DNA from: Candidatus Omnitrophota bacterium
GTDB taxonomy: Bacteria > Omnitrophota > Gorgyraeia > Gygaellales > Profunditerraquicolaceae
Length of the DNA: 64,000 nt
Reading direction: 5' to 3'
NCBI GenBank assembly: GCA_030650425.1
Contig: JAUSED010000005.1
Coordinates: 206,932 to 270,931, forward strand
Part shown: in pieces, positions 13,381-44,143 of the stretch
Layout of the letters: every line of letters starts with the position of its first letter
How positions within the stretch are numbered: the first letter of the stretch is position 1
Translations under genes and position numbers: made by a program
The notes under the pieces: generated by a model
Seen by the model: only the letters and a program-made list of their open reading frames with translations
The model's database searches: none
Told to the model about the DNA's origin: nothing

Positions 13381-13450
13381 TTGCGAGGCGAAGCCGAAGC
13401 AATCCCTGGGAAAACGAGATTGCTTCGCCACTGCGTGGCTCGCAATCAGA
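13381..13450. repeat. Palindromic element family G copy 1 (…GCGAGGCGAAGCCGAAGCAATC…GATTGCTTCGCC…GCTCGCAA…), intergenic after the hydrogenase operon
   Basis: Long inverted repeat; member of the 'GTCATTGCGAGCGAAGCGAAGCAATC' family seen at four sites. Confidence 0.75.
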
Positions 13451-13466
13451 CGGGCGGAATTAATTA

Positions 13467-14063
13467 ATGAACTACTCAAGTTTGTTACATAACGATATGA
13501 CAGGATTACTCGCTAAGCTCGGAGATTTAGGCGTTTTTATAGCCATGTTCCTGGAGTCATGCATCGCGCCTATACCTTCGGAAGTAATCATCATCAGCGC
13601 CGGCGCAATCGGGTTCCCTTTAGCTTCAGTGGTTATTTTTGGTTCGTTAGGCTCGACTTTGGGGGCAATGGTGGGATACGCGTTAGGAAGATATGCCGCT
13701 ATGCCGGTATTATTGAAATTCGGCAGGTTCATTCTGATTAAACCGCACCATATTTATAAAGCGGAAGAATTCGCCAAAAAATACGGGGTGGCCAGCGTCT
13801 TTATTGGGAGGGTCCTTCCGATAATTCCCTTTAAGGTTTTTTCGATTGCCGCGGGGATTACCCATATTCCGTTTACGCCGTTTGTATTCTGCACCCTGCT
13901 TGGTGTTGTGCCGAGAATATTCCTCTTGGCTCTTTTTGGCGCGGCGATCGTCAAATATACAAAGGTAGTCTTTATTTTAATAATTTTTGCCGTACTGATA
14001 TTTTTGGCGCATAGGATATTACGTTATATTTATGGTGTAGGAAAGCATAAAACACTTTCCTAA
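13467..14063 (+). CDS. DedA/VTT-domain (SNARE-associated) family membrane protein
   Basis: 198-aa membrane protein with the typical DedA pattern (…FLESCIAPIPSEVII…GRVLPIIPF…). Confidence 0.65.
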   Translation: MNYSSLLHNDMTGLLAKLGDLGVFIAMFLESCIAPIPSEVIIISAGAIGFPLASVVIFGSLGSTLGAMVGYALGRYAAMPVLLKFGRFILIKPHHIYKAEEFAKKYGVASVFIGRVLPIIPFKVFSIAAGITHIPFTPFVFCTLLGVVPRIFLLALFGAAIVKYTKVVFILIIFAVLIFLAHRILRYIYGVGKHKTLS

Positions 14064-14158
14064 CCACTGAAACTTCATAAGGAAAGTTTTGAATCCCGCC
14101 TTTAGCGGGATGAAGTTTCTTGAGCGAAGAAAGAAAATAATATTAAGGGAGGTTCCCA

Positions 14159-14776
14159 ATGACTATCTGGCAGATGCTTAAAAGCGGCGGCCTAACCATT
14201 TATATACTTTTAGCCTGTTCGGTTCTATCGCTGGCCATCATTATCGAGAGGTATATTTATTATCGCCGAAGGTCCAGGGCCAAGAGGGCGCCTTTCATGT
14301 CCAAGATAAGTAAGGATTTGGAGAAAGGGAATCTGGTAAAAGCTTTGGATGCCTGTAAAAATATAGATACTCCATTTTCCAATGTCGTCTATTCAGGCCT
14401 TAATTTATCCGGGCACAACGAGATGCTCATCTCCAATACTATGGAGCGGGAAATAAGCATTGAGACGATCAAATTAGAAAAATATACGAGTATCGTAGGC
14501 ACAATCGGAAGCACCGCTGTCTATATCGGCCTCTTCGGGACGGTCTTGGGAATTATCCGCGCCTTTCACGATATTGCCGCGGCCGGCTCCGGAGGGATAA
14601 GTGTGGTAATTAGCGGCATATCCGAATCACTGGCTTGTACAGCTATGGGTTTATGCGTGGCTGTTCCGGCGGTGATTGCCTATAATTATTTTATCAAGAA
14701 GATCGATAATTTTATTACCGATATGGAATTGTGCGCTTCCGAGACAATGGATCTGTTGACTGTTAAGCAGAAATGA
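14159..14776 (+). CDS. MotA/TolQ/ExbB-family proton channel protein
   Basis: 3 TM helices plus a conserved C-terminal channel region (…FGTVLGIIRAFHDIA…LACTAMGLCVAVPAVIAYNYF). Confidence 0.75.
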   Translation: MTIWQMLKSGGLTIYILLACSVLSLAIIIERYIYYRRRSRAKRAPFMSKISKDLEKGNLVKALDACKNIDTPFSNVVYSGLNLSGHNEMLISNTMEREISIETIKLEKYTSIVGTIGSTAVYIGLFGTVLGIIRAFHDIAAAGSGGISVVISGISESLACTAMGLCVAVPAVIAYNYFIKKIDNFITDMELCASETMDLLTVKQK

Positions 14777-15180
14777 ATCTACGCGCCCACAAACAAAGAT
14801 TAATTGCTGAAATAAATATTACCCCTTTTACCGACGTCATTTTGGTTTTATTGATTATCTTTATGATCACGACGCCTTTAATACTTCAATCAAGCCTTAA
14901 GGTAAACCTGCCGCGGGCTGAGAGCGCTTCCGCGGTAAAAGAGATGGGGCCGGTTAATATCATCATCACCAATGAAGGCACCGTATATCTGGACGGAGCG
15001 ATGGTTACCCGTAGAGAACTAAGAGAAAGGATTAATAGCAGGCATAGGAATGATCCGAACTTAGCCGTGGTTGTAAGTTCCGACAGGCTCGTTCGTTTTA
15101 AGGATATCGTGGATATCCTGGATATTTTAAATACAGTAGGTATAAAAAATCTTAATATCGCGGCAACAAACGATAAATAG
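14773..15180 (+). CDS. ExbD/TolR-family protein
   Basis: 135 aa, a single N-terminal TM helix (ITPFTDVILVLLIIFMITTP), and overlap-coupled to the ExbB-like gene. Confidence 0.7.
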   Translation: MNLRAHKQRLIAEINITPFTDVILVLLIIFMITTPLILQSSLKVNLPRAESASAVKEMGPVNIIITNEGTVYLDGAMVTRRELRERINSRHRNDPNLAVVVSSDRLVRFKDIVDILDILNTVGIKNLNIAATNDK

Positions 15181-15198
15181 GAAAGGAGAACTTGTAAA

Positions 15199-17481
15199 AT
15201 GTTAGGTTTAATGAACGCGAGTGTTTTCGAGACGTTTGCGATTTGGGGAGTGCTTCTAATTGCTTTTCTGGGGTTAGCTTATGCTTTGTTATTGCGTAAA
15301 CAGATTATGGCGCATGATAAAGGTACGCAAGGTATGCAGGATGTCTGGAATGCCATCCGCACAGGAGCGGATGCTTACTTAAGCCGCCAGTTAAAAAGCA
15401 TACTGCCTTTAATTTTAGTACTTACCGCTGTTTTATTTTTCTCGGTCTATATTATCCCGCCTAGCGATGAGGCATTAAGGCGTTTTAGCAAATTTACTCC
15501 GGATATGGTCCGGCTGATCGTCGGTTTGGGAAGGGCCGCGGCATTCGTGATGGGCGCTTTCTTTTCGCTTACCGTGGGCCAGTTTGGGATGCGTATGGCG
15601 GTTGAGGGTAATGTGCGGGTTGCCTCTGCCTCCCGCAGGAGTTTTAGCGAGGCGTTAAAAATAGCCTACCGGACCGGGACGATTACCGGAATGCTTACTG
15701 ACGGCCTTGGGCTTTTAGGCGGGACAGTCATCTTTATTATTTTCGGTATAGCTTCGCCCGACGTATTACTAGGGTTTGGTTTTGGCGGGACGCTCCTGGC
15801 GCTCTTTATGCGTGTCGGCGGCGGCATCTACACTAAGGCAGCGGACGTCGGCGCGGATTTAGTCGGGAAAGTAGAGAAAAATATTCCTGAAGATGATCCA
15901 AGAAACGCCGCGGTGATCGCTGATCTTGTGGGAGATAATGTCGGCGATTGCGCGGGTATGGCCGCGGATATATTTGAGTCATATGAGGTAACCATTGTTT
16001 CCGGCTTGATTTTAGGTTTAGCGCTGGTTTCCATTACCGGAGAGCTAAAATGGATCGTTTTCCCGCTTTTAGTGCGCGGTATCGGCGTGCTTTCTTCGAT
16101 TATCGGTACGTATCTGGTAAAAGGAAATAAGAAGGATGGCAAAGGGCAAGATGCCTTTAAGAGTATCAATCGCGGATTTTATTCATCTGCCGCAATTTCT
16201 GTGGCTGCATTTTTAATTTTAGCTCATTATTATATGCATGAATGGAGGGCCTTCTTTTCTGTGGCCATGGGTATAGTTTTGGCTATCGTGATTGACGAAA
16301 TAACCAAATACTTCACCCATACGCATCACGCGCCGGTCAAAGAAATCGCCTCTTCATCCCGGACGGGTGCCGCAACCTTGATTTTACGCGGCTTATCCAT
16401 CGGACTTGAATCCAGTGCTTGGCAGTTTGTGGTTATTGCGCTTACGATTATGGCTGCTGTTATTATCTATTGGGGCCAGCCCGTGGTTTTTGTCCTTTAT
16501 GGTGTAGCGATGACCGGCATCGGTATGCTTACCTTAACCGGTAATAATGTGGCGATGGATTCATTCGGCCCGATCGCGGATAATGCTAACGGTATTGGCG
16601 AAATGGCGCATTTAGAGCCAGAGGCCCGGCAGATTATGGCTGACCTTGACGCTGTAGGAAATACTACTAAAGCCATCACTAAAGGTGTAGCCATTGGTTC
16701 AGCAGTGATTGCCGCGGTTTCTTTGTTCGGCGCTTTTTTAACCGATGTTACCAAGGTGCAGGCGCAGATGGGGGTGGTAGAATCTTTACGGCTTCTATCT
16801 ACCGGTATCAGGGTTTCTGAGCCGATTGTTTTTGTCGGCGTGCTGATCGGAGCCGCGGTGCCTTGTTTATTTTCCAGCCTGATGATTAATTCCGTAGCCC
16901 GCGCGGCTGCCTTGATTGTGGATGAGGTACGTAGACAATTCCATACCCCGGGAGTGATGGAAGGGAAAGTCAAGCCAGACTATAAAAAGGCAGTGGATAT
17001 TTGTACGATAGCCGCGCAAAGAGAGCTTATTGGTTTGGCTTTGATTGCCGTATTAAGCCCGATTTTAATCGGTATGGTCTTGAGGGTTGAAGCTTTAGGC
17101 GGATTTTTGGCTGGCGTAATTGTTTCAGGCCAGCTTTTGGCAGTGTTTATGGCTACCGCAGGTGGAGCTTGGGATAATGCCAAGAAGACGATCGAAGATG
17201 GCTTATATGGGGGTAAAGGTTCTGAGGCGCATAAATCATCGGTTGTCGGCGATACAGTCGGTGATCCTCTCAAAGATACTTCCGGCCCGGCATTGAATCC
17301 GATGATTAAGGTAATTAATCTTGTTTCTCTTCTGGCCGCGCCTATAATTATTCACTATCGTCAAACTGATGTAGGTGTTATAATTGCAATTGTGCTCTGC
17401 GTAGTCTTGATATTCGGCGCGATCCTTTATTCAAAACACGGAGCCCTAAGTTTTAGAAAAAAGAGCGAAGCGGGTTTCTAG
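15199..17481 (+). CDS. hppA: Membrane-bound H+(or Na+)-translocating pyrophosphatase
   Basis: 760 aa with hallmark motifs '[20 protein letters not shown]' and '[23 protein letters not shown]'. Confidence 0.9.
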   Translation: [760 protein letters not shown]

Positions 17482-17490
17482 TTTCCCTAG

Positions 17491-17570
17491 TAGGGGACAC
17501 TTTCCTTTAGTAGTTTAGTAAGAGCCCTGACGGAAAGTGTCCCCTAGTTGTGAGTTAGGAAAGTGTCCCC
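17491..17570. repeat. REP-like hairpin element, family R copy E (inverted orientation relative to A-C) plus an extra right half-site
   Basis: TAGGGGACACTTTCC…AGAGCCCTGAC-GGAAAGTGTCCCCTA. The loop ends with the reverse complement of the GTCAGGGCTCT seen in copies A-C. An additional GGAAAGTGTCCCC lies at 17558..17570. Confidence 0.85.
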
Positions 17571-17629
17571 TGAATGGTAGAGAGAAAATTTCCTTGCAAA
17601 AGCAAAACTTGAATGTTAAGCTGTGCTTA

Positions 17630-18253
17630 ATGAAGGCCCGCCTTTTACTAGCCCTATTTTTTTGCCTGCTTTTGCCAGTTCTAACTTTTGCCGCCCAAGC
17701 TTCTTCCTCAAGGCCTGCCAGGCTTAGGCAAGCTGTAATTCCCATAACCATAAATAATGGCGCCAATAATACTAATTCAACCACAGTAACCCTGAATCTC
17801 TCTGTGGATAACCTCTCAGGCCAGCCTCCTTTTCAGATGTCTTTTTCCAACAACAACTATCTCTGGTCAACCTTATTTCCCTTTAGCCCAAGCAAAACCT
17901 GGGAACTATCTCCTTTGGGAGATACTTCAGGAGACGCTAAGCTGGATATGGGAGATGCGATGCTCATTGCCCAATACCTGGCGCATATACGCTCTCTCAC
18001 CCCTGAGCAGATAGCTGTAGCTGATGCTAACCAGATCAAAGGAATTGATATAGGTGACGCTATGTTGATTGCCCAGCGCGTGAATAAGAAAAGAGTCCTG
18101 CCTATCGGCGAAGGAGCGCGCACGGTCTATGTTAAATTTAAGGATAGTCTCGGAAACTGGTCAGATATTTACTCTGCCGCGATTATCCTGGATACTCAAG
18201 GCCCAACTTTAGAGATCACCTCGCCTCAAGAAGGAGCAGTAATCAAAGAATGA
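17630..18253 (+). CDS. Secreted dockerin-like repeat protein ending in a truncated Ig-like segment
   Basis: Signal peptide MKARLLLALFFCLLLPVLTFAAQA. Two dockerin/EF-hand-like Ca-binding repeats: 'GDTSGDAKLDMGDAMLIAQYL' and 'DANQIKGIDIGDAMLIAQRV'. The start was moved to the ATG at 17630, after the REP element. The gene shares an ATGA overlap with the RHS gene. Confidence 0.5.
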   Translation: MKARLLLALFFCLLLPVLTFAAQASSSRPARLRQAVIPITINNGANNTNSTTVTLNLSVDNLSGQPPFQMSFSNNNYLWSTLFPFSPSKTWELSPLGDTSGDAKLDMGDAMLIAQYLAHIRSLTPEQIAVADANQIKGIDIGDAMLIAQRVNKKRVLPIGEGARTVYVKFKDSLGNWSDIYSAAIILDTQGPTLEITSPQEGAVIKE

Positions 18254-21200
18254 AGAAAATCAGCGCGTTTTTTATCAGCCTTGGCTTAATCCTCTCCGTA
18301 GTTAGCCTTGTCTTTGCCCAAAACGCCGATGTGTCGGGAGAGTGGTGGATAGATCCAACTGTCTATCCGATTATAAGCGCTAAAAGAGTACAAACGGACA
18401 TTATCCATCTGCCCACAGGAGATAAAACAGGTATTACTGAATCCACTGTAGCTGCCTCATTTGCGGCTTCAAGCGGTTTTTATGATGTAACTCAAAATAG
18501 CAACGGGGATATTAGTGCCTCAAGGTCGATAACGGATGCCGGCGGAACGGTTATCATAAGTACAATGAAAGGGAAGGTCACCGGCAATACTGTAACTTTT
18601 ACCATAGATAATAAGATGATATTCCCTTCAGACGCTATTACCGGATTTAGTGGTTATGAAGCTACCAATCTTGCCTGCTCCGGAACAATAAAAACCTCTG
18701 ATTTACCAAACACTATTGATTATACCTATAGCGGTACTTATTACCTTTACTCTCAGATGTCTACTCCTTGGGCCGATAGTTTTACTGTTACTACCGCAAC
18801 ATCTGAGAATACCGCCTCTCTTAGAATAACAAAATCCTCACCTCCGCCTCCGCAGCAACCAAACCCTCCTCCAGATTCTTCTAACGGCGAATTTTATAGC
18901 GATCCGCAAAATAGCGTAGGGGAGCCGATTAACTCGGTTACCGGGAATATGTATATCATTACCCCGGATTTAACCCTTTCGGGTAAAGGAATGAATTTTG
19001 CCTTTAGCCGCACCTATAATAGCCAGTCTGCCAGTAACACCAGTGAATCCGGCCCCTTAGGTTATGGCTGGACGCATAGTTATAATCTTTATCTTACGCA
19101 AGATACCCAGAATAAGCTTGTCAAAATAAAAGATGAGGAGGGGAAGGGCTATTTATTCGCGGATAATCAAGACGGTACATTTGTCTCCCAGCGCGGCGAA
19201 TATTCCATTCTCACCAAAGACTCATCTAACTTCATCTGGAGAAAAAAGGACGGCAAGCAATATATCTTTGATTTAGCCGGCAAGCTTACCCAGATCAAAG
19301 ACCGCAATAATAATACTATCAATCTTTCCTATAATAATCAAAACCAACTAACCTCGGTTACTGATACTTACGGCCGAAAGATAGAACTAACCTACTCAGA
19401 AGCTAGAATCAGTTCTCTAATTGATCCTTCAAGTAGATCCTTTATCTATACTTACGATACTCAAGGGAATTTATCTGCTGCCACTGATCCTCTGGGTAAC
19501 AGTACTACTTATACCTATGACTCCCAACATAACTTAACCAAGCAAACTGACCCCCTAAACCAATCGATCTATTATACCTACGATAGCTTAAACCGCTGCA
19601 CTTCCTCATCCGGAGAGAATAATGCCGGCAGGGTGGATTTGGTTTTTGATCCAGCGAATCACCAAACTACTATCACCGATTCTAAGAACAATAGCGCTAT
19701 CCATTACTACAATGATGATTCCCTGATTATCAAGGTTAAGAACACTCAGGGAAGCGAAAGTACCTCTATCTGGGATAATAATTTTAACCTGGTCTCCCGC
19801 ACTGATGCTTTAGGCCGCGCCACTCAGATGGAGTATGATGCAAAGGGTAACCTAACCAAGGTTACTGATGCGGATAATAAGATTACCTCTTTTACTTATG
19901 AGCCCGACTTTAATCTATTACTGACTTCCACCGACGCTCAAAGCAATCTCACCACCTATACCCGCGACGCCAGTGGTAACCCCACCAAGGTAACTGACGC
20001 CTACAACAACTCCACTAATTACACCTATAATAACGCAGGCCAAGTAACCAGTGTTCAAAACGCCTTGGGAAACTCTACTAATTTTACTTATGATACCCAA
20101 GGTAACCTGATTCAGGTAAAAGACGCTTTAGGCAATCTAACTACCTTTAGTTATGATACTATAGGTAACCTACTCCAATCCAAAGACGCCCTAAGTAATA
20201 TCACCAAGTTTACCTATGATAACCTGAATCAGTTGACTAAGGTTACTTACCCGGATGATACCACTCTAACTTACGTCTATGACTCAGCAGGTAACCGTAT
20301 TTCCGTAACCGATACTCTTGGCAATACCACCACCTCTACCTTTGATCAATTCCAGCGCATCACTTCCACCACTGATGCTTTAGGTAATAGTATTAACTAC
20401 GTTTATGACAGCGAAGGCAACTTAACCTCGCTTACCGATCAAAACAATAACCAGACTACCTACACCTACGACAGCTTAAACCGCCTAATCCTAGAGACCG
20501 ACGCCCTCGGCAACAAAAAGCAATACCAATATGATGCTGTAGGTAACCGCACTACTTACATTGATGCCAAAAATCAAAGCACTAGTTATACCTATGACAA
20601 ACTCAACCGTCTGACTAAAATCACCTATCCAGATAGAGATGTGAGTTATACTTATGATTCCTTAGGCAGGCGTCTAACGATGTTGGATGAGCGCGGCACA
20701 ACTAATTACACCTATGATAAATTAGGCCGCCTGACGCAAGTTGACGGCCCAAAAGCTAATGATACAGTTAGCTATACCTATGATAAGCTTGGTAACCGCT
20801 TGACTATGACTGATCCAACAAACAAAATCACTTCCTACTCCTACGATGCGCTCAACCGCCTGACTTCGATCACTGACCCGCAAGCTAAAGTTACTAGCTA
20901 CACCTATGATACTTTAGGTAATTTAACCAACCTAATTTATCCCAACGCTACTAAAACAACCTATACCTACGATACCTTAAACCGCCTGCTTAAACTTACC
21001 GAACAGCTAGCCACAAGCCCCTATACTAAGTTAGCTGAGTTTAGCTATACCTATGATCAATTAGGCAGGAGAACTCAAGTTAATCTTTTAGACGCAAGCC
21101 AGATCAATTATACCTATGATGCTTTAAGCCAACTCACTCAAGAGAACAAAACTTACTCGACCAGCCCTTATCAGATTAGCTATAGCTATGACCCTGCAGG

Positions 21201-22503
21201 TAACCGCCTAGAGATGATTAATCAAGGTGTAAAACACGCTTATTCCTATAATTCCCTAAATCAACTCACCGAGGAAAGTTTTAGCGGCGGCAGCAATCCC
21301 ACTAAAATCACAGTTACCGGAAGAGCCTCGGATGCAAGCGGGATCAAACAGGTAACCGTTAACAATATAACCGCAGCCTTAGCAGGGAATAGCTTTACCT
21401 GCGCGGATGTTACGCTTACACCCGGGCCAAATACCCTCACTGTCATAGCTACTGATCAGGCCGGTAACAGCACTACCAAAATACTCCACGTCACCTACAG
21501 TCCTACTACTAAGCTTATCTATACCTATGACAATAACGGAAGCTTGATTAGCAAGACAGGATCAGGCGATGCTCTTAACTTAAGCTATGACTCAACTAAC
21601 CGGCTCACCCGTTTTAAAAACTCTCAGCTTGATGAGACTTATCAATATGACGCAGAGGGTAAAAGAATCGCTAAGCAATCCGGCTCAAGCACAACAAACT
21701 ACCTTTATGATGGCTTAAATGTAATTCAGGAGAACACTTCAATTGGCTCAACTAACTACACCCGTAATCCCAATGCTCCGGGAGGTATCGGTGGTATAAT
21801 CAACCAGCAGTCTCCAAGTAATGTATCCTCCTATTATCATTACGACGGCTTAGGCAGCGTAACTAATTTAACCAACTCAACAGGAACAAATACCCAAACC
21901 TACAGCTACGATGCCTTTGGTAATTTACAGGGACTGTCCTCGAAGGGAACTGTCCCTGATCTTCGCGGATTCCTGACTAAAGAAGCTGACTCAACCGGTC
22001 TAAGTTACTTCGGCGCAAGATACTACGACCCCAAGATCGGAAGATTCATCACTCAGGACCCGAGCGGTATGAGTGATGGGCCGAATTTGTACTTGTATGT
22101 TAAAAATAATCCTGTAAATTTTGTGGATGCGTGGGGGTTGTGTAAGAATCCCTCGCAGTTAATCCTTCAACAATTATCGCCTTCAGATATAATCTTTGGA
22201 GTTAAACAATACTTAAAAGTTCTTGATTTACTCTCGCCACAACTACGCGCTACTTTAGATACAATAAGTAGTTTTTCTTCAAATAAGGGGCCATTGGAGA
22301 CGCTTGGCGGAATAGGTGGTGGATTATTGGGCGGGATTGGAGGATCAGCTATAGGGAGCGTAGAGGGTCCTTTTGGAACCTTTGTTATTGGCACAATAGG
22401 TTCATATCTAGGTTCTAAATTTGTATCAGATAAAGGTAAAGTCGCAGACGAATATTATTACCAAATAATTTATGAATTAATAACTAGAAAGGAAAATAAA
22501 TGA
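18250..22503 (+). CDS. RHS/YD-repeat polymorphic toxin with an Ig-like domain, RHS core (…DPxGL-type cleavage site 'VDAWGL') and a ~120-aa glycine-zipper C-terminal toxin tip
   Basis: 1417 aa. Signal peptide; dozens of 'YTYDxxGN(L/R)' YD repeats; RHS-associated core 'YHYDGLGSV…ARYYDPKIGRFITQDPSGMSDGPNLYLYVKNNPVNFVDAWGL'; C-terminal 'GGIGGGLLGGIGGSAIGSVEGPFGTFVIGTIGSYLGS'. Confidence 0.85.
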   Translation: MKKISAFFISLGLILSVVSLVFAQNADVSGEWWIDPTVYPIISAKRVQTDIIHLPTGDKTGITESTVAASFAASSGFYDVTQNSNGDISASRSITDAGGTVIISTMKGKVTGNTVTFTIDNKMIFPSDAITGFSGYEATNLACSGTIKTSDLPNTIDYTYSGTYYLYSQMSTPWADSFTVTTATSENTASLRITKSSPPPPQQPNPPPDSSNGEFYSDPQNSVGEPINSVTGNMYIITPDLTLSGKGMNFAFSRTYNSQSASNTSESGPLGYGWTHSYNLYLTQDTQNKLVKIKDEEGKGYLFADNQDGTFVSQRGEYSILTKDSSNFIWRKKDGKQYIFDLAGKLTQIKDRNNNTINLSYNNQNQLTSVTDTYGRKIELTYSEARISSLIDPSSRSFIYTYDTQGNLSAATDPLGNSTTYTYDSQHNLTKQTDPLNQSIYYTYDSLNRCTSSSGENNAGRVDLVFDPANHQTTITDSKNNSAIHYYNDDSLIIKVKNTQGSESTSIWDNNFNLVSRTDALGRATQMEYDAKGNLTKVTDADNKITSFTYEPDFNLLLTSTDAQSNLTTYTRDASGNPTKVTDAYNNSTNYTYNNAGQVTSVQNALGNSTNFTYDTQGNLIQVKDALGNLTTFSYDTIGNLLQSKDALSNITKFTYDNLNQLTKVTYPDDTTLTYVYDSAGNRISVTDTLGNTTTSTFDQFQRITSTTDALGNSINYVYDSEGNLTSLTDQNNNQTTYTYDSLNRLILETDALGNKKQYQYDAVGNRTTYIDAKNQSTSYTYDKLNRLTKITYPDRDVSYTYDSLGRRLTMLDERGTTNYTYDKLGRLTQVDGPKANDTVSYTYDKLGNRLTMTDPTNKITSYSYDALNRLTSITDPQAKVTSYTYDTLGNLTNLIYPNATKTTYTYDTLNRLLKLTEQLATSPYTKLAEFSYTYDQLGRRTQVNLLDASQINYTYDALSQLTQENKTYSTSPYQISYSYDPAGNRLEMINQGVKHAYSYNSLNQLTEESFSGGSNPTKITVTGRASDASGIKQVTVNNITAALAGNSFTCADVTLTPGPNTLTVIATDQAGNSTTKILHVTYSPTTKLIYTYDNNGSLISKTGSGDALNLSYDSTNRLTRFKNSQLDETYQYDAEGKRIAKQSGSSTTNYLYDGLNVIQENTSIGSTNYTRNPNAPGGIGGIINQQSPSNVSSYYHYDGLGSVTNLTNSTGTNTQTYSYDAFGNLQGLSSKGTVPDLRGFLTKEADSTGLSYFGARYYDPKIGRFITQDPSGMSDGPNLYLYVKNNPVNFVDAWGLCKNPSQLILQQLSPSDIIFGVKQYLKVLDLLSPQLRATLDTISSFSSNKGPLETLGGIGGGLLGGIGGSAIGSVEGPFGTFVIGTIGSYLGSKFVSDKGKVADEYYYQIIYELITRKENK

Positions 22504-22916: not shown

Positions 22917-22920
22917 CTAC

Positions 22921-22969
22921 AAGACACACAAGACACAGACAGTTTCTCCAAGACACAGACAGTTTCTCA
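22921..22969. repeat. Tandem direct repeat (2.4 x 20 bp, AAGACACAGACAGTTTCTCC)
   Basis: Direct observation: aagacacac + AAGACACAGACAGTTTCTCC + AAGACACAGACAGTTTCTCA. The unit resembles the R-family arm (ACAGACAGTTTC versus GGGACACTTTCC). Confidence 0.8.
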
Positions 22970-23023
22970 GCTAATCGGGACAGTGTACCTCGCTCAAGAT
23001 AGAAGGTGTACCTTTTGAGGAAA

Positions 23024-23518
23024 TCATATCTGTAGCTGATCTAGTAACCAAATGAATGAACTTTTGGCCAAAACTCTTTCTTGGCAGCTGCTCCAGCGGT
23101 ATTCTCCCGCTGAGTTTACAAGCTTTGCTCTGACGGGATTGAGTTCAACATAATGGGTACAGTCGATTAGATAGTTATCTTTGACAATCACCTTGCTCTT
23201 AAAGCGCCCTTGCCATAGATGGCCTACTTTCTGATAGCGTTTATTGAAGTATGCGGTGTAGGCTCTGGATAGCCCTTGCATAAACTTAGCCATATTGGCG
23301 GAAAGCCTCGGCTCTCCGATTAGGTGAATATGGTTTGGCATAAGGCAGTAGCCATACAACAGGAAACCGAATTTCCTTTTGAATCTTCTTAGGAATATAA
23401 GGTATCTCTTATAATCATTTTCATCAAAGAATACCTGTTGTCTTTGGTTGCCGCGAATGGTAATGTGATAACAAGCGTTTTTGATTAGTAGCCTTGGGCC
23501 TGTAGGCATAAGCATCAC
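23024..23518 (-). CDS. IS200/IS605-like Y1 HUH transposase of the RAYT (TnpA-REP) type
   Basis: N-terminal 'YHITIRGNQRQQVFFDENDYKRYL'; HUH motif 'NHIHLI'; catalytic-Tyr region 'YRWSS'. Length of 164 aa is typical of RAYTs. Confidence 0.8.
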   Translation of the reverse strand: MMLMPTGPRLLIKNACYHITIRGNQRQQVFFDENDYKRYLIFLRRFKRKFGFLLYGYCLMPNHIHLIGEPRLSANMAKFMQGLSRAYTAYFNKRYQKVGHLWQGRFKSKVIVKDNYLIDCTHYVELNPVRAKLVNSAGEYRWSSCQERVLAKSSFIWLLDQLQI

Positions 23519-23648
23519 CTCCTACATTAATAGACGTAAGATAGCCAGGAATCTAACGCAGATTTGTTAAAAAACTAGAAAAGGGTACACTTTCCAGCGT
23601 GGCATAGGTACAGTTTCCCGATTGGAACGGAAAGTGTCTGTAAGAAGA

Positions 23649-26965: not shown

Positions 26966-27196
26966 ATGGATTACAAAGTAATGTTGGCATTGGCTATTCC
27001 GTTAGGGTTAGCGATAACCGCGTTTGGCTCAGCTTTTGCTTTAGGTAAGGCGGTTTCTTCGGCAATGGACGCGACAGGAAGGCAGCCGGAAGCCGCGACT
27101 AAAATCCTGATTAATATGGCTACAGGTTGCGCCTTTATCGAAGCATTGACAATCTACGCGCTGGTTTTTGCGTTTGTCTTATCGGGGAAATTATAA
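26966..27196 (+). CDS. atpE: F0F1 ATP synthase subunit c
   Basis: 76-aa proteolipid hairpin (…GRQPEAATKILINMATGCAFIEALTIYALV…). Confidence 0.85.
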   Translation: MDYKVMLALAIPLGLAITAFGSAFALGKAVSSAMDATGRQPEAATKILINMATGCAFIEALTIYALVFAFVLSGKL

Positions 27197-27240
27197 AAAA
27201 CGAGATTGCTTTACCCCTTCGGGGTTCGCAATGACAGTTT
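27196..27240. repeat. Palindromic element family G copy 2 (compact form with a CCCCTTCGGGG tetraloop hairpin), between atpE and atpF
   Basis: aaaacgaGATTGCTTtaCCCCTTCGGGGttCGCAATGACagttt shares GATTGCTT and CGCAATGAC with copies 1, 3 and 4. Confidence 0.7.
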
Positions 27241-27738
27241 ATGGAATTACTTAAGCTTTTAAGCACTAACGAAATTATCGCGCAGGTTTTGGGGTTCCTT
27301 ATCCTATTAACCCTGCTTAGGGTTTTTGCCTGGAAGAAGATTCTTGGCCTTCTGGATAAGCGTAAAGAATATGTTGTTTCAGAGCTAAAGGGAATAGAGG
27401 ATGCCAAGGCGGATATAGCAAAGATTAAGCTTGAGTATGCTGCCAATATGGCCTCGATTGAAGAAACGGCAAAAGAAAAACTTCATCAAGCGTTCAATGA
27501 ATCCAAGATTATTCTAGAGGATGCCCGCAAGTCCGCGCATCTGGCGGCTCAGGAAATAATTGATAACGCGAAAAAGAGCGTTCAATACGAGCTTGCCAAA
27601 GCCAAGGATGAATTAAAAAATGAGATTATTGATTTAACGGTTAAGGCTGCCGAGAATATTATTCAAGAGAAGCTTACCGGAGCAGGGGATAGGAAGATAG
27701 TGGAGAATTTTTTAGGCGAGTTAGATAAGCTGGAATGA
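27241..27738 (+). CDS. atpF: F0F1 ATP synthase subunit b
   Basis: N-terminal TM helix followed by a long charged helix; operon order. Confidence 0.7.
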   Translation: MELLKLLSTNEIIAQVLGFLILLTLLRVFAWKKILGLLDKRKEYVVSELKGIEDAKADIAKIKLEYAANMASIEETAKEKLHQAFNESKIILEDARKSAHLAAQEIIDNAKKSVQYELAKAKDELKNEIIDLTVKAAENIIQEKLTGAGDRKIVENFLGELDKLE

Positions 27739-29808: not shown

Positions 29809-32323
<2,515 letters not shown>

Positions 32324-32335
32324 AATAAAAATCCG

Positions 32336-34242: not shown

Positions 34243-34252
<10 letters not shown>
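32336..34252 (+). CDS. Hypothetical protein with an N-terminal domain paralogous to that of the downstream HD-GYP protein (DUF3391-like); no HD motif
   Basis: The N-terminal ~130 aa align with the N-terminus of ORF 34243..35589. The rest is helical and repeat-like. Overlap-coupled to the HD-GYP gene. Confidence 0.5.
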
Positions 34253-37217
<2,965 letters not shown>

Positions 37218-37218
37218 A

Positions 37219-38316: not shown

Positions 38317-39961
38317 CCTAAAAAAGATCTTAATCATTGGTTCCGGACCGATTGTCATCGGACAGGCTTGCGAATTTGATTATTCCGGAACCCAAGCCTG
38401 TAAAGTATTAAAGCAGGATGGGTTTAAAATAATTTTAGTAAATTCCAATCCCGCGACGATTATGACTGACCCGCAAGTAGCTGACGCTACTTACGTTGAG
38501 CCGATTACGCCGGAAGTTGTGGAGAGGATAATCGCCAGAGAAAGGCCGGATGCCCTTTTACCGACATTAGGAGGTCAGACTGCCTTAAATACCACGGTCG
38601 CCTTAGCGGAAAGAGGGGTATTGAAGAAATATAAAGTAGAGGTCATCGGCGCCAATATTAAAGCAATCAAGAAAGGCGAGGATCGGCAGCTATTTAAAGA
38701 GGCGATGAAAAAAATAGGTTTGGATTTACCGCGCAGCGGCAAGGCCTATAACTTGAAAGAGGCGTTTAAGGTGGCAGGTAAAATAGGTTTTCCTTTAATT
38801 ATCCGGCCGAGTTTTACTTTGGGCGGAACCGGCGGAAGTATGGCTAAGAATAAAGATGAGTTTAAGGATTTAGCTAAGGCCGGGCTTGAATCCAGCATGA
38901 TTAGTGAAATATTGATTGAAGAATCCGTCGCCGGATGGAAAGAGTTTGAACTGGAAGTAATGCGCGACGCGAAAGACAATGTGGTGATTATCTGTTCGAT
39001 TGAGAATTTCGATCCTATGGGAATTCATACCGGAGACAGTATTACCGTAGCCCCGATTCAGACCCTTACTGACAAAGAATATCAGAAGATGCGCGATGCT
39101 TCGATTGCCTGCATAAGAGAGATTGGTGTTGAAACCGGCGGTTCAAATATCCAGTTTGCCGTGCATCCGGATACGGGCCGGATGGTGATTATCGAGATGA
39201 ACCCGCGCGTATCCCGAAGTTCCGCCTTAGCTTCCAAGGCCACTGGTTTTCCGATCGCTAAAATTGCCGCTAAATTAGCCGTAGGTTATACCTTAGATGA
39301 AATCCCTAACGATATTACCCGCGAAACACCTGCCTGTTTTGAGCCGGCGATTGATTACTGCGTCGTTAAGGTGCCGCGTTTTACTTTTGAAAAATTCCCC
39401 TCTGCCGACCCGACCCTTACTGTTTCCATGAAATCCGTCGGTGAAGCGATGTCCATAGGCAGGACATTTAAGGAGGCGCTGCAAAAAGGCCTGCGCTCTT
39501 TGGAGATCAAGAAATACGGGTTGGAAAGTATTTTATTTAGTGATCTGGCGAATGTAAAGGCAGATGAAGATATTAGGAATCTAATCGAGCAAAAGTTAAG
39601 CGTGCCTTGCGCCGAAAGAATATTCTATATCGGAGATGCCTTGAGAATCGGTATGGGGATAGAAAAGATTTTTGAACTTACCCGTATAGACCGCTGGTTT
39701 CTGAGTAATCTTAAAGAGATAATTGATTTCGAGAAAGAGATTGTTAAAAATAAAGCTAATCTATCTAAAGAGACGCTTGTCAAAGCCAAGGAGTTCGGTT
39801 TTAGCGATAAACAGCTGGCTAAACTTCTGGATAAGCAAGAAGAGGAGATTTACGCTTTGCGTAAATCATTTAGTATCGAGCCTGCCTTTAAGCTTGTGGA
39901 TACCTGCGCCGCGGAGTTTCTTGCCCACACCCCGTATTTTTATTCCACTTACGACAAATAA
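38300..39961 (+). CDS. carB: Carbamoyl-phosphate synthase large subunit, N-terminal half only (split carB)
   Basis: 553 aa covering the first ATP-grasp unit and oligomerisation domain. It ends at '…YFYSTYDK', the canonical split point. The next gene is unrelated. Confidence 0.85.
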
Positions 39962-39963
39962 AT

Positions 39964-41358
39964 ATGGCGATTAAAGTAAAATTTTTAGGCGGAGTAAAAA
40001 CAGTTACCGGTTCGAGCCACTTAGTAAGCGCCGGGAAAACCGAAATCCTGCTTGATGCCGGGCTCTTCCAAGGCAGACGCGATGAATCTTATAAAATAAA
40101 TACTACTTTTAGTTTTAATCCCCGCTTGATTAACGCGCTGGTTTTATCGCACGCGCATATCGACCATTGTGGGAATATCCCCAGCTTGATCAAGAAGGGC
40201 CTGCGTTGTAAGATTTATACCACGCTCGCCACAAAAGCTTTGAGCCAGCTTATGCTTAGCGATTCCGGAAAGATCCAAGAAGAGGATGTAAACTATGTGA
40301 ATAAAATAAATAAGAGGATCGGACTCCCTGAAAGAAAGCCTCTCTATACCAAAAAGGAAGCGGCTCGTGCCACCAAAATATTCAGGCCGATTTCTTATCA
40401 CCAGAAATTCTGTATTGCTAAAAATGTTTGCGCGACCCTGCTTGATGCCGGGCATATTCTAGGTTCAGCGGTAATTGTATTGGATATTAAAGATGAAGCT
40501 CGTTCTGTTCGGTTGGGTTATGCCGTAGATTTAGGGAGAAAGAACCTGCCGTTGTTGAATGATCCGGTTATACCAAAAGGCTTGGATTATTTGATTATCG
40601 AAAGTACTTACGGAGGCAGGCTGCACGCTCCGATTGAAGAGGCGCAATCGAAATTAAGAGAGGTGATATCCCGGACGTTACGGCGCGGCGGAAAAGTGCT
40701 TATTCCTTCTTTTACCTTAGAGCGCACGCAGGAGGTAATTTATTTTTTAAATGAGCTTTTAAAAGAAAAGCTTATTCCTAATGTTCCGATCTATGTGGAT
40801 AGCCCGCTGGCCACAGAGATTACTGAAGTATTCGAGGCCCATCCTGATTATCTTGATGAAAAGACCCGTCAGGCGATTACACGGGGGGAGAGCCCTTTCG
40901 CATTTTTAAATTTAAGATTTATTCGTGAACAGAGAGAGTCTAAGGCCTTAAACGCGGATAAACGGCCGATGATTATTATCGCCGGCAGCGGGATGTGCGA
41001 ATCCGGAAGGATCCTGCATCATCTTCAGAATAACATCGAGGATTCCCGGAATACGATTCTGGTCGTCGGTTATATGGCGCACGATACCTTAGGCAGGAAA
41101 ATAGTAGACAGGGAAAAAATTGTGCGTATATTTGGGATAGAATATGAATTGAATGCCGAGGTGGTGGTTATTAACGCGCTCTCGGGCCACGCGGATAAGA
41201 ACGAACTGATGAAATTTATAGCCGGATCTCTCCCGCTTAAACGCATATTCCTTGTTCATGGAGAGGAAGATCAGGCGCTCGCTTTACTCGAGGCGCTTAC
41301 CCGGGAAGGCCTCAATGCCTATATCCCGTCTAAAGACGAAGAGGTGTTGCTTGATTAG
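39964..41358 (+). CDS. MBL-fold beta-CASP ribonuclease (RNase J/CPSF-like)
   Basis: 'HAHIDHCG' metallo-beta-lactamase motif; beta-CASP layout; 464 aa. Confidence 0.75.
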   Translation: MAIKVKFLGGVKTVTGSSHLVSAGKTEILLDAGLFQGRRDESYKINTTFSFNPRLINALVLSHAHIDHCGNIPSLIKKGLRCKIYTTLATKALSQLMLSDSGKIQEEDVNYVNKINKRIGLPERKPLYTKKEAARATKIFRPISYHQKFCIAKNVCATLLDAGHILGSAVIVLDIKDEARSVRLGYAVDLGRKNLPLLNDPVIPKGLDYLIIESTYGGRLHAPIEEAQSKLREVISRTLRRGGKVLIPSFTLERTQEVIYFLNELLKEKLIPNVPIYVDSPLATEITEVFEAHPDYLDEKTRQAITRGESPFAFLNLRFIREQRESKALNADKRPMIIIAGSGMCESGRILHHLQNNIEDSRNTILVVGYMAHDTLGRKIVDREKIVRIFGIEYELNAEVVVINALSGHADKNELMKFIAGSLPLKRIFLVHGEEDQALALLEALTREGLNAYIPSKDEEVLLD

Positions 41359-41417
41359 GGATTGTATGGTAATATTACAAAAGTCAAAAGTTAGCGCAAA
41401 TTCATAAGGAGGATGCA

Positions 41418-41657
41418 ATGACAGGTGGATTTTCAACCCCAAAGAAAGATAAGGCGAATAAAGTTTCCGCAGGGATGAGCGTTAAAACCGGACAGATTTT
41501 GGTAAGAGGGGTAGATACTTACAAGTCTGGTGTTAACGTAAAGGGTTTAGGCACGTTGATTGCTCAATGTCCCGGGGAAGTTTATTTTAGCAAAAAGAAG
41601 ACCAGTCACGGTAAAGTGCGCACCTTCGTGAACGTTAAACCCGCTGAAAAGAAATAG
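41418..41657 (+). CDS. Ribosomal protein L27-like (divergent)
   Basis: 79 aa. The pattern 'AG.S...GQILVRG…G.NV.G.G.LIA…G.V.F' parallels the L27 core, but the N-terminus is atypical. Confidence 0.35.
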   Translation: MTGGFSTPKKDKANKVSAGMSVKTGQILVRGVDTYKSGVNVKGLGTLIAQCPGEVYFSKKKTSHGKVRTFVNVKPAEKK

Positions 41658-41674
41658 AGAATGTTCTCTTAGGC

Positions 41675-41702
41675 GGTAGCGGACACTTAAGTGTCCGCTA
41701 CC
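41675..41702. repeat. Perfect 28-bp palindrome GGTAGCGGACAC-TTAA-GTGTCCGCTACC
   Basis: Direct observation. The inner GGACACTT matches the REP family R arm GGGGACACTTTCC. A second hairpin AGAGAAtgTTCTCT lies at 41657..41670. Confidence 0.8.
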
Positions 41703-41707
41703 TAAAT

Positions 41708-42838
41708 TTGGTAACTATTATTTTTTCCATGGTCGATAGGGCAAAACAGTATTCCAACATTAAGTACAGCTTGGAAATCGCTGGTATAATCTACACCTTT
41801 CTCCTTATCTTTCTCTTTCTAAAATCAGGCCTATCTAAAAATCTTGCTTCTACGCTTAGTATCTTCTCGCCGGGATTTTTAGCAGGGGCACGGCATACCA
41901 TGCCCCTACTTTTATACCTATTCATCGTTTCTTTAGGTTACTATATTTTGAACCTTCCGCTGAATATCTATCAATCATATATCTTGGAGCATAAATTTTC
42001 GTTAACTACTCAAAGCCTTGGAAGTTGGTTTAAGGATCAGTTTAAGGCAGGCGCGATTTCTTATGTGATTAGTCTTATATTAGTAGCGGCCTTCTATTTA
42101 ATTTTGCATTATAATCCCGCGAGCTGGTGGTTAGCGCTTTCCATATTCTGGATTATTTTTAGTATCGTCTTGGCCAAGCTCCTGCCTATCGTGATTATCC
42201 CTATTTTTTTCAAATATAAGAAACTAAGTGATGAAAATTTACGGGTGCGGGTTATGAAACTGGCCGCGAAGATGAAAGTCAAGATATTGGATTGTTTCGA
42301 GATCGATTTTAGCAAAAAAACATTGAAAGCTAATGCCGCTTTCGTAGGTATAGGTAATACGCGCAGGGTGATTTTAGCCGATACCTTAAAGGATAAATAT
42401 AGCTATGATGAAATAGAGGTAGTCTTAGCGCATGAGTTCGCGCATTACCAACTGAAGCATCTCTTAAAATTAGTGGTGGTTAATTCACTCTCTACTCTGG
42501 CAATCTTTTATTTAATTTTCCGGACGAACGCCTATATCTTAAATTGGTTTGGTTTATCTTCGCTGAATGATTTGGCCAGCCTGCCGGTTATCTTAATTTA
42601 TTTTATCCTCTTTGGTATAATCACGCAGCCGCTGGAGGCTTTTATTAGTAGGAGTTTTGAGAGGAGCGCGGATTCCTTGGCGCTTGAGACTACAGGATTA
42701 AAAGAAGCCTTTATTTCTACGATGGATAAACTCGCCAAACAAAATCTTAGCGATAGGTCTCCCCACCCGATCATCAAATTCTTCTTTTTTGATCATCCGC
42801 CAATTGATGAGCGCATCAAAATGGCGCGTTCATTATAA
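41708..42838 (+). CDS. M48-family (HtpX/Ste24-like) membrane zinc metalloprotease
   Basis: 'LAHEFAHY' HExxH motif followed by TM helices. Confidence 0.7.
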   Translation: MVTIIFSMVDRAKQYSNIKYSLEIAGIIYTFLLIFLFLKSGLSKNLASTLSIFSPGFLAGARHTMPLLLYLFIVSLGYYILNLPLNIYQSYILEHKFSLTTQSLGSWFKDQFKAGAISYVISLILVAAFYLILHYNPASWWLALSIFWIIFSIVLAKLLPIVIIPIFFKYKKLSDENLRVRVMKLAAKMKVKILDCFEIDFSKKTLKANAAFVGIGNTRRVILADTLKDKYSYDEIEVVLAHEFAHYQLKHLLKLVVVNSLSTLAIFYLIFRTNAYILNWFGLSSLNDLASLPVILIYFILFGIITQPLEAFISRSFERSADSLALETTGLKEAFISTMDKLAKQNLSDRSPHPIIKFFFFDHPPIDERIKMARSL

Positions 42839-42840
42839 AA

Positions 42841-42925
42841 CTCAGAACTGTCATTGCGAACCCCGAAGGGGTGAAGCAATCTCTTAAAACACGTGATTGC
42901 TTCGCTTCGCTCGCAATGACTCAAA
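42841..42925. repeat. Palindromic element family G copy 3 (intergenic, convergent gene ends)
   Basis: GTCATTGCGAACCCCGAAGGGGTGAAGCAATCTC…GATTGCTTCGCTTCGCTCGCAATGAC. It generates the phantom ORF 'MLRFARNDS…'. Confidence 0.8.
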
Positions 42926-42928
42926 TTT

Positions 42929-44143
42929 TTATTTTATAAAGTCAATTATAATCTTGGCGGCGCGGGCGGAAGCCCCGGATTGGCCTAATGAGGATTTGAC
43001 TGCGGCAAGGTCAGCGCGCATATTTTCCAACTTAACGCGGTTATTGAGGATTTCCAGAGTCTTTTGCGCTATTTTTTTAGGAGAAGCGCCAAACTGGATA
43101 AATTCCGGGATTATTTTTTTACCGGCTATGATATTGACTATCCCGATATAGGGAATTTTAATCTGCGGACGATAGAGCAGATAATTGAGCAAGCCCATCT
43201 TATAAATTATCAGGAAGGGTTTTTGCATGATGGCGGTCTCAAGCGTAGCAGTCCCCGAGCAGACGAGAGCGAAATCCGCGATATTTAGGGCATCGTAAGT
43301 TTTTCCATCTAAAATCTTTAGAAAATTACACGAAGTGTCATTGCGAGCGACCGAAGGGAGCGAAGCAATCTCGTTTTTATGATTGCTTCGTCGGGCTTCG
43401 CCCTCCTCGCAATGACTACGGTTGATTATCCGGTCATAAATTTTCCAATCGGCTTGGGGAGCTTTAGCGATGAGGAATTGAGCGTTGATTTTTTTATTTA
43501 TGAGCGCAGCAACCTTAAGCATTACCGGTAAGATCTTACTTATCTCTTGTTTACGGGAACCAGGAAGGAGGGCAATGGTTGTTTTTTCCGGAGAGAAATT
43601 CAACTTAGCGCGCAGCTCTTCTTTATCGATGCAGGGTTTAACGATATCTAAGAGGGGATGGCCAACGCAATCCGCGTTGATGCCGTGTTTCTTGTAGAAT
43701 CCTTTTTCAAATTCAAAAAGCACAATCATTTTTTGGATGTACTTTTTGATGTTTTTTATGCGCCCAGCTCTAGACGCCCAGACCTGCGGGCTGACATAAT
43801 AGATAGTCGGTATGCGCTTATTGATCGCTTTGGCCAGGCGAAGGTTAAATCCGGAAAAATCTACCAATATCACCGCGTCGAATCTTTCGGACGCTATCTT
43901 TTTTAGAATTAATTTCTTTAAATTGATAAATCGGGGGAGTTTTTTTAAAACATCAAAAAGGCCCATTACGCTTAGGCCTTTAATGTCATAAAATATTTCT
44001 GCTCCTGCCTGAGCAAGCAGCGAGCTGCCTATCCCTGAAATTTGTATATCCGGATTAATTTTTTTTATCGCGGAGACGAGGCCAACCGCGTGCAGTTCGC
44101 CTGAAGGCTCGCCGCAGATAATTAAGATTTGTTTCTTTGCCAT
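42929..44143 (-). CDS. lpxB: Lipid-A-disaccharide synthase carrying a ~30-aa in-frame insertion derived from a palindromic repeat
   Basis: N-terminal 'ILIICGEPSGELHAVGL' and '…LVCSGTATLE…' LpxB (GT19) motifs. The insertion 'HCEEGEARRSNHKNEIASLPSVARNDTSCNF' coincides exactly with repeat G copy 4. Confidence 0.8.
   Translation of the reverse strand: MAKKQILIICGEPSGELHAVGLVSAIKKINPDIQISGIGSSLLAQAGAEIFYDIKGLSVMGLFDVLKKLPRFINLKKLILKKIASERFDAVILVDFSGFNLRLAKAINKRIPTIYYVSPQVWASRAGRIKNIKKYIQKMIVLFEFEKGFYKKHGINADCVGHPLLDIVKPCIDKEELRAKLNFSPEKTTIALLPGSRKQEISKILPVMLKVAALINKKINAQFLIAKAPQADWKIYDRIINRSHCEEGEARRSNHKNEIASLPSVARNDTSCNFLKILDGKTYDALNIADFALVCSGTATLETAIMQKPFLIIYKMGLLNYLLYRPQIKIPYIGIVNIIAGKKIIPEFIQFGASPKKIAQKTLEILNNRVKLENMRADLAAVKSSLGQSGASARAAKIIIDFIK
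43331..43420. repeat. Palindromic element family G copy 4, inserted in-frame within lpxB
   Basis: GTCATTGCGAGCGACCGAAGGGAGCGAAGCAATCTCgtttttatGATTGCTTCGTCGGGCTTCGCCCTCCTCGCAATGAC. The lpxB ORF is continuous through it. Confidence 0.8.

Follow-up and report, generated by a model that had tools for sequence, protein, structure and literature searches.

What kind of sequence can sit inside the gene of an essential lipid-A enzyme and between two genes of an ATP synthase operon, and how would it come to be there? The question is raised by a 64,000-nt stretch of a Candidatus Omnitrophota genome (GenBank assembly GCA_030650425.1, contig JAUSED010000005.1, positions 206,932 to 270,931 of the forward strand), hereafter the window, in which a short palindrome occurs at four sites, one of them within lpxB and another between atpE and atpF. 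We consider it likely that these elements are copies of a non-autonomous hairpin repeat of the repetitive extragenic palindrome (REP) type that fits the CGTC-tagged REP superfamily defined by Di Nocera, De Gregorio and Rocco (2013, BMC Genomics 14:522; PMC3733652). The fit is made on described features and stops at the superfamily. The copy in lpxB is an in-frame insertion tolerated in an intact essential gene, and the family is spread across bacteria and is not lineage-specific.

The four sites hold seven half-elements, arranged as three inverted doublets and one singlet (Table 1). Each half consists of GTCATTGCGA, a small variable hairpin and GAAGCAATC, and its limits were set in pattern searches by the exact ends GTCATTGCGA and TCGCAATGAC. 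A first-pass annotation, made from the sequence alone, had listed the same four copies; all of them are real, and their positions are corrected here by a few bases. Within the window, GTCATTGCGA with at most one mismatch is matched nine times where 3.06 matches are expected, a count reached in none of 100 shuffles, and the tagged half pattern is matched six times against an expected 0.08; a loose pattern search of the window returned no further copies. The tetraloop hairpin CCCC-(TTCG/GAAG)-GGGG, which had been described as frequent in the copies, is present as CCCC-GAA-GGGG in only two of the seven halves, namely copy B and the left half of copy C, and the other five differ. These two halves lie 15 kb apart and are identical at 37 of 38 positions including their flanks, which, given that the inner hairpin is otherwise highly variable, points to the recent copying of a single half.

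Table 1. Repeat copies and other features of the window (positions counted from its first base)
Feature	Position	Strand	Remarks
Copy A, head-to-head doublet	13377..13448		left half 13377..13404, spacer 13405..13417, right half 13418..13448
Copy B, single half	core 27204..27235; with tail 27196..27235	-	atpE-atpF spacer
Copy C, head-to-head doublet	42850..42920		convergent spacer between M48 peptidase gene and lpxB
Copy D, head-to-head doublet, 80 nt	43337..43416		inside lpxB
lpxB (lipid-A-disaccharide synthase), 404 aa	42929..44143	-	host gene of copy D
atpE (c subunit, 76 aa)	26966..27196	+	flanks copy B
atpF (b subunit)	27241..27738	+	Pfam ATP-synt_B 5e-19
RAYT (REP-associated tyrosine transposase)	23024..23518	-	Y1 motif search in six frames of the window
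Other palindrome family	1551..4006, 17488..17570, 63432..63541		over-represented motif
84-aa open reading frame 'MLRFARNDS...', very likely spurious	42897..43151	+	antisense overlap with the 3' end of lpxB

A half measures about 26-36 nt and is composed, in order, of GTC, ATTGC, GA, the inner hairpin, GAA, GCAAT and C. Folded with DNA parameters, all seven window halves are predicted to adopt the same form, with an unpaired GTC, a 5-bp ATTGC/GCAAT stem, a 2x3 GA//GAA internal loop, an inner stem, a 3-nt loop and an unpaired final C. The tag reads TGTC in three halves, AGTC in three and is degenerate in one, and it is unpaired in every DNA fold, while the triloop is of the GNA type in all seven (six GAA, one GCA). 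The tail after GCAAT is CTC in four halves and CCC, CAC or CAT in the rest, with an extended form GCAATCTCGTTTT in A-right, B and D-left. Head-to-head halves are separated by spacers of 10-14 nt, and the doublets are predicted to fold into one long branched hairpin (or cruciform). As RNA, the window doublets reach -32 to -44 kcal/mol with z of -3 to -6 (copy A, -31.8 kcal/mol, z -2.95; copy C, -33.8 kcal/mol, z -5.7; mRNA strand of copy D, -43.7 kcal/mol, z -6.2), and copy D folded as DNA reaches -24.8 kcal/mol with z -6.6.

This anatomy recurs well beyond the window. A scan of one genome per species with the pattern GTCATTGCGA-N5-25-GAAGCAATC provided a family set of 185 halves, made up of the bacterial loci among the matches listed and of the window itself. 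ATTGC...GCAAT was part of the search pattern and is therefore present in 185/185 halves; between these arms lie 116 distinct inner segments of 5-30 nt, with GCGAAGC (26 times) and GGAGCGAAGCGAC as the commonest. In the inner hairpin, pairing is conserved while the sequence varies: 295 of 396 positions pair in odd-length inner segments (shuffled, 138 +/- 9), 50 of 77 such segments have GNA as their central triplet, and G.A/A.G oppositions are concentrated at positions three and four counted from the loop. Among 184 halves, GTC is preceded by C in 107, by T in 62, by A in 11 and by G in 4, and the tail after GCAAT begins with a pattern-fixed C, followed by C (97) or T (73) and then by A (85) or C (82). 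With degenerate arms allowed, a head-to-head partner lies within 70 nt of 105 of 178 halves, and a tail-to-tail partner was found for 14 of the 178. GCGNAGC is known to form a DNA mini-hairpin of extraordinary stability, and d(GNA) loops with a closing C-G pair likewise have a very high stability in DNA (PMC13037366, PMC3201870). This stability makes it plausible that a single-stranded DNA form has a role.

The described features of the CGTC-tagged superfamily correspond to much of this picture (PMC3733652). Its units carry an unpaired CGTC tag, often TGTC, with CCTC as an accepted variant; their stems of 8-9 bp begin with A-T and T-A and enclose loops of 4-5 nt; a 3-nt tail close to CCA follows; head-to-head dimers predominate; intragenic units are present; and no associated transposase genes are described. 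The window element and its relatives similarly have an unpaired tag with C or T before GTC (169 of 184 halves), a stem that starts with A-T and T-A in all seven window halves and, fixed by the pattern, in 185/185 collected ones, and a short unpaired 3' tail, which is CCA(G) in alphaproteobacterial and Legionellales copies. Head-to-head dimers predominate and tail-to-tail ones are rare; copies are mostly intergenic, with some in-frame intragenic ones; and no linked transposase gene was found in the loci searched. The superfamily is described mainly from Alphaproteobacteria and from five phyla in all, and Bradyrhizobium, Sphingomonas and relatives, Micavibrio and Rickettsiales are taxa shared with the present family, whereas our host range is much wider and includes Omnitrophota, Patescibacteria, Chloroflexota and phage contigs. 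By the authors' own remark, repeats with bulges may have escaped their survey (PMC3733652). Searches of the supplements of that paper for the arms and the encoded peptides gave no matches, and literature searches for the DNA string and the repeat-encoded peptides found nothing relevant.

The behaviour of the element had been called similar to that of Rickettsia palindromic elements (RPEs), a description that holds up because RPE-4 and RPE-6 of R. conorii, like dRS3 of Neisseria, are assigned to the CGTC superfamily (PMC3733652); the link rests on this assignment. In both cases, palindromes lie in frame within housekeeping genes that are left intact (here lpxB, and guaA at locus L100). The hosts differ in phylum and in way of life, with an obligate intracellular bacterium on one side and a free-living or episymbiotic member of Omnitrophota on the other, and RPE-1 is longer, at about 100-150 bp. 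Miniature inverted-repeat transposable elements (MITEs) are another class to consider, since the window element, too, is small, codes for no protein of its own, ends in inverted arms (of 10 bp), is present in several copies and is occasionally inserted in frame. Unlike MITEs derived from insertion sequences, the window element has single halves copied alone (copy B versus C-left), which is typical of REPs, and no target-site duplication was identified at its diverged junctions.

The copy in lpxB bears most directly on how such a repeat is tolerated. Read on the minus strand, copy D encodes SHCEEGEARRSNHKNEIASLPSVARND. The insertion comprises the 80-nt palindrome and 4 adjacent nt, that is 84 nt or 28 codons, in frame and without a stop; the earlier proposal of an addition that keeps the frame is thus borne out, with no frameshift in the intact open reading frame (ORF), although its size had been put at about 30 codons. 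At the insert point, the closest orthologue (L001) is shorter in its DNA by exactly 84 nt. The 28-residue block is missing from the nine closest orthologues (70-86% identity, 376-378 aa) and from all 71 aligned ones (65-86% identity, mostly 376-378 aa), so the alignment identifies it as an insertion, and a protein-database search with the 40-aa insert returned no candidates. The protein is an LpxB by sequence: it matches Pfam LpxB at 1.3e-86 and the E. coli LpxB structure 5w8s at 2e-42, and it keeps every invariant column of a 72-sequence alignment. It scores 257 bits against TIGR00215, the NCBIfam LpxB equivalog with a cut-off of 190, in a match divided into two stretches, where the closest orthologue scores 284 bits in a single stretch. 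The identical Candidatus Omnitrophota protein at NCBI is named 'hypothetical protein', while orthologues are named lipid-A-disaccharide synthase, which may be because the insert splits the TIGR00215 match.

An AlphaFold2 model built from the 72-sequence alignment (mean predicted local distance difference test score, pLDDT, 81; predicted template modelling score, pTM, 0.79) has E. coli LpxB structures as its best fold matches in the PDB. Residues 245-271, which follow helix 233-242 and precede strand 275-279 in the C-terminal Rossmann half, are modelled with a pLDDT of 25-50 and without secondary structure, so that the insert is predicted to be a disordered surface loop. In a Rossmann-type fold, an alpha-to-beta loop lies at the sheet edge opposite the ligand-binding edge, and an insert placed there, away from the ligands, could plausibly be tolerated. 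The intact gene suggests that the element is tolerated both as protein and as mRNA.

Two other accounts of the lpxB copy can be weighed on the same evidence. That the 28-aa segment is a selected protein module giving LpxB a new function is very improbable: the segment is the plain translation of a palindrome, occurs in none of the aligned orthologues, has neither modelled secondary structure nor a Pfam match, and is placed in a loop on the edge opposite the ligands. The gene is nevertheless intact and conserved around the insert, and it has been speculated that some intragenic REPs alter protein activity (PMC3733652). As to whether the copy is an assembly artefact or the gene a pseudogene, the source is a metagenome-assembled genome (MAG), the exact protein is on record from one contig only, and assemblers can be confused by short repeats. 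We find this account barely credible, since lpxB is present on both flanks of the element in the same frame and order, common short reads exceed the 80 nt of the element, the ORF contains no stop or frameshift, all family-invariant residues are kept, the LpxB equivalog cut-off is passed, and a comparable in-frame doublet is found in guaA of an unrelated MAG.

That second doublet, independent of the lpxB case, is in the GMP synthase GuaA of an uncultured gammaproteobacterium (L100, about 4466..4540), where it adds 24 residues (137-160) to the glutaminase domain that are extra relative to solved GuaA structures. Candidate in-frame copies, based on Pfam matches only, were also noted in an MFS transporter (L069), a PD-(D/E)XK nuclease (L080), a radical-SAM ORF (L004) and at L034; of the long "ORFs" called around copies at high-GC loci, many are likely to be spurious.

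Has the element moved within this lineage? Relatives allow a comparison at three of the four sites, namely lpxB, the spacer between lpxB and the M48 peptidase gene and the atpE-atpF spacer. In the relatives, each of these sites is either empty or occupied in another way, which indicates that the element spread in this lineage. In the syntenic loci L123 and L124, the lpxB/M48 spacer is 37 nt long and holds a GGGAC..GTCCC palindrome in place of copy C. No CGTC-type unit was found in 53 kb of relatives' DNA around lpxB (L123, 21 kb; L124, 21 kb; L122, 11 kb), of which 42 kb is syntenic. Related Omnitrophota have GGGACAG-type palindromes but not the CGTC-type family.

An obvious question is whether the RAYT of the window moves the element, so that the doublets would be REPINs, that is, REP doublets forming hairpins. 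The RAYT gene matches Pfam Y1_Tnp at 1.7e-16 and NCBIfam NF047646 (REP_Tyr_transpos) with 80.8 bits against a cut-off of 80, and it lies 3.7 kb from copy B. Copy B is the nearest CGTC-type unit, and none flanks the gene. It lies between 62-nt inverted arms (22955..23016 and 23580..23641, 73% complementary), in which the GGGGACACTTTCC-type motif of another palindrome family is present, with GGGTACACTTTCC at 23583, and its left flank includes a tandem 20-nt repeat, CAAGACACAGACAGTTTCTC, present twice. This other, 'first' palindrome family (GGGGACAGTCCCC and GGGGACACTTTCC...GGAAAGTGTCCCC) has 16-17 matches in the window against about one expected, and some of its copies bear a GTAG-like tag, TAGTAGGGGACAC. 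Because the RAYT is flanked by this family and by no CGTC-type unit, it is most likely the partner of the first family, which is probably its cognate REP/REPIN family. Just upstream of the RAYT region, a 1417-aa ORF (18250..22503, plus strand) contains many diverged TACACCTATGAT... repeats encoding Y-T-Y-D and looks like an RHS/YD-repeat protein.

In their architecture, the doublets do resemble REPINs (Bertels and Rainey, 2011; PMC3116915, PMC3337134): two inverted hairpin units with a short spacer form one long hairpin (copies A, C and D fold with z of -3 to -6.6), singlets occur, and presence or absence differs between relatives. The tag, however, is YGTC or AGTC and not GTAG, whereas the GTAG-like tags of the RAYT-associated type belong to the other family that flanks the only RAYT of the window. 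In relatives, GGGACAG-type palindromes are present and the CGTC-type family is not, vertical inheritance within lineages is described for REPIN-RAYT systems while the window element occurs across many phyla and phages, and CGTC repeats are characterized as not associated with transposases (PMC3733652). A search with a narrow motif through the element loci (about 240 loci of up to about 15 kb each; 874 kb from bacteria, 1.07 Mb from viruses) found no ORF with a Y1 HUH motif. We therefore regard movement of the doublets as REPINs by the window RAYT as quite improbable. Clustering of the ORFs in the bacterial loci revealed no recurrent neighbouring gene family beyond housekeeping genes, the neighbours being ABC ATPases, short-chain dehydrogenases, GGDEF proteins, ValRS and the like, and the neighbour clusters of the viral loci are capsid, portal and protease genes.

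The distribution of the element is broad. Exact arms were found in at least 120 genome loci from about 20 phyla or classes, as judged by record titles: Alpha- and Gammaproteobacteria, Desulfobacterota, Helicobacter, Bacteroidota, Chlorobiota, Ignavibacteriota, Chloroflexota, Cyanobacteria, Melainabacteria, Patescibacteria, Omnitrophota, Planctomycetota, Nitrospirota, Zixibacteria, Latescibacterota, Hydrogenedentes, Gemmatimonadota, Armatimonadota and Firmicutes. The same pattern is matched in at least 120 viral contigs, and the copies lie within modules of genuine capsid, portal and prohead-protease genes. Two units of a Patescibacteria locus (L048, 3703..3736 and 5977..6010) have the inner segment GCGACCGAAGGAAGC, one base apart from that of window D-left (43337..43370, GCGACCGAAGGGAGC), and the same CTCG tail, a likeness which suggests a subfamily common to two groundwater candidate phyla.

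By crude ORF calls, most bacterial units are located between genes that are co-directional or converge. Viral contigs have mainly single units, and neighbouring single units of one contig are on the same strand in 19 of 21 cases (p = 2e-4); in some phage contigs (L143, L164, L131), as many as six single units, all of the same strand, occupy short gaps between co-directional genes, and in L174 (2695..2818) four tandem copies follow each other with a 33-nt period. The orientation of viral units relative to genes is mixed (32 to 29), which, together with the strand coherence, agrees better with a strand-specific process than with a transcription-specific one. In Chloroflexus (L010, 1372..1506), three copies in tandem recur about every 50 nt. 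At valS (valyl-tRNA synthetase), the called start is directly preceded or overlapped by an element in the unrelated loci L033 (2398..2481) and L077 (5510..5547), and a third valS locus (L063) has copies nearby; this association could be a coincidence.

It is possible to go further and propose that the ATTGCGA...GAAGCAAT hairpin is one element carried across phyla and by phages, and copied strand-specifically, from single-stranded DNA, by an enzyme other than a RAYT. We think this unlikely, although room for it is left by the 19 identical arm bases in genomes of about 20 phyla or classes, the nearly identical variant in Omnitrophota and Patescibacteria copies, and the nearly always same-stranded single units of phage contigs.

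The remaining question is what the intergenic copies do. Copy B fills the intercistronic spacer between atpE and atpF (27197..27240); its A-rich tail is at 27196..27203, and its minus-strand sequence is GTCATTGCGAACCCCGAAGGGGTAAAGCAATC, to which TCGTTTTT is added as the tail. A copy had been noted at this place before and is confirmed, as a single half and not as a doublet. Relatives have a 76-aa ATP-synt_C gene at the position of the window atpE, and the spacer that follows varies between them. It is only 10 nt long (302..311) in L125, the closest relative with DNA, whose AtpF is 85% identical; 72 nt (529..600) in L127, with a GGGACAGCGACC... palindrome; and 122 nt (479..600) in L126, with a AAATCCCAAAT.../...TGGGATTTGG palindrome. 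Three mutually unrelated palindromes, including the CGTC-type one of the window, thus fill this spacer in three genomes, for which reason a hairpin may be favoured there.

A role of copy B as an intrinsic terminator was considered and rejected, since a terminator scan found no terminator-like site and no T-run on the sense strand; the T-run that follows the unit (TCGTTTTT) is on the antisense strand only. A functional parallel is provided by the REPs and bacterial interspersed mosaic elements (BIMEs) that stabilise mRNA in E. coli, of which malE-malF is the classic example. These are likewise hairpins inside operons and just after stop codons, and copy B separates genes whose products (c and b subunits) are needed in very different amounts. 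The E. coli elements have no sequence relation to the window element. The atpE-atpF hairpin could possibly shield the message upstream of it or keep the translation of atpF low.

More generally, the elements might exist mainly as useful RNA hairpins, acting in mRNA stability, attenuation or processing, with mobility being secondary; the atpE-atpF copy, for example, would then set the c:b subunit ratio. The sharing of this spacer by unrelated palindromes agrees with such a role, as do the positions of copies A and C directly after stop codons, a 30 to 13 orientation bias of bacterial single units between co-directional genes, a mild depletion of units between divergent genes, and the argument made by Di Nocera et al. 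for RNA as the active form of many REPs (PMC3733652). Nonetheless, an RNA hairpin needs no 19 fixed arm bases across about 20 phyla or classes and phages, the viral units are mixed in their orientation relative to genes, the in-frame copies in lpxB and guaA have no obvious RNA role, and copy B itself is in the rarer 'opposite' orientation and is not followed by a sense-strand T-run. On balance, we hold it to be somewhat unlikely that RNA function is the main reason for the elements.

Copy A begins 10 nt past the stop of a 4Fe-4S ferredoxin ORF (13002..13367), is followed by a VTT/DedA-domain gene (13467..14063, by Pfam) and has a degenerate right end, tag included (TCGCAATcAg). Copy C is flanked by the stops of the M48 peptidase gene (42838) and of lpxB (42929). 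The 84-aa ORF of Table 1 had been suspected to be a phantom produced by the element, and rightly so: its TTG start is within the right half of copy C, and it has no Pfam family even at E<=10. Similar element-seeded ORFs are found at 13121..13402 and 27135..27446, both on the minus strand; the three ORFs (84-103 aa) start in or run through elements, one of them contains INCHCEPRRGKAISFF, and all three, overlapping real genes or spacers, are very likely spurious. The repeat-encoded peptides have no Pfam family. Rfam at gathering thresholds recovered three tRNAs only in the window; in a permissive scan of the C/D region the best match was CRISPR-DR12 (E = 3.2), which was taken as chance. A small palindrome with perfect arms, ATTGCGC-CAGT-GCGCAAT, at 50146..50163, 8 nt upstream of a tRNA (50171..50243), has the ATTGCG/CGCAAT ends of the element without the tag and arms of the family.

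Several points weigh against the assignment to the CGTC-tagged superfamily and the picture of a mobile repeat that comes with it. The present units have a 5-bp stem with an internal loop, a variable inner hairpin and a GNA triloop, unlike the described stems and loops; three window halves have AGTC as their tag, and the window tail is mostly CTC and not CCA. GTC and the final C were required by both the genome and the viral scans and are thus conserved by construction, and the gene context of the units was judged from crude ORF calls. No mobilising enzyme linked to the element was found in the loci examined, and neither a target-site duplication nor a clean junction could be resolved at the three filled-versus-empty sites, where the junctions have diverged. 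In lpxB, where the junction has likewise diverged, the 4 nt inserted beyond the palindrome are not accounted for by it. The strand coherence in viral contigs could also stem from local duplication or from selection tied to the one-directional arrangement of phage genes.

If the elements are indeed CGTC-type REPs, a unit would be copied via a single-stranded DNA hairpin, in trans, by an enzyme encoded elsewhere that is probably not the RAYT of the window. Insertions in essential genes would persist only if the frame was kept and a loop was hit. The intergenic copies would be transcribed as hairpins, some of which, such as that between atpE and atpF, may be co-opted to tune mRNA stability or translation.

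For annotation, the practical consequence is that the repeat seeds spurious ORFs and splits the profile match of LpxB. For the protein, an essential lipid-A enzyme appears to tolerate a 28-residue loop at one defined position; the lpxB case adds a new target gene and is a good example, not a new kind of thing. For the family, CGTC-type REPs are extended to Omnitrophota, a new host phylum, and to Patescibacteria and phage contigs, and further interest comes from the strand coherence, the spread over phyla and phages, and the presence of an orphan family near a RAYT-linked one. How CGTC repeats move, a question that dates from 2013, is brought into sharper focus by a single 64-kb stretch in which a RAYT with its own palindromes lies beside a family without a linked enzyme. 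Should the proposal of one element carried across phyla prove true, this small genome, with a RAYT family beside an 'orphan' CGTC family, would be a test bed for the movement of orphan REPs.

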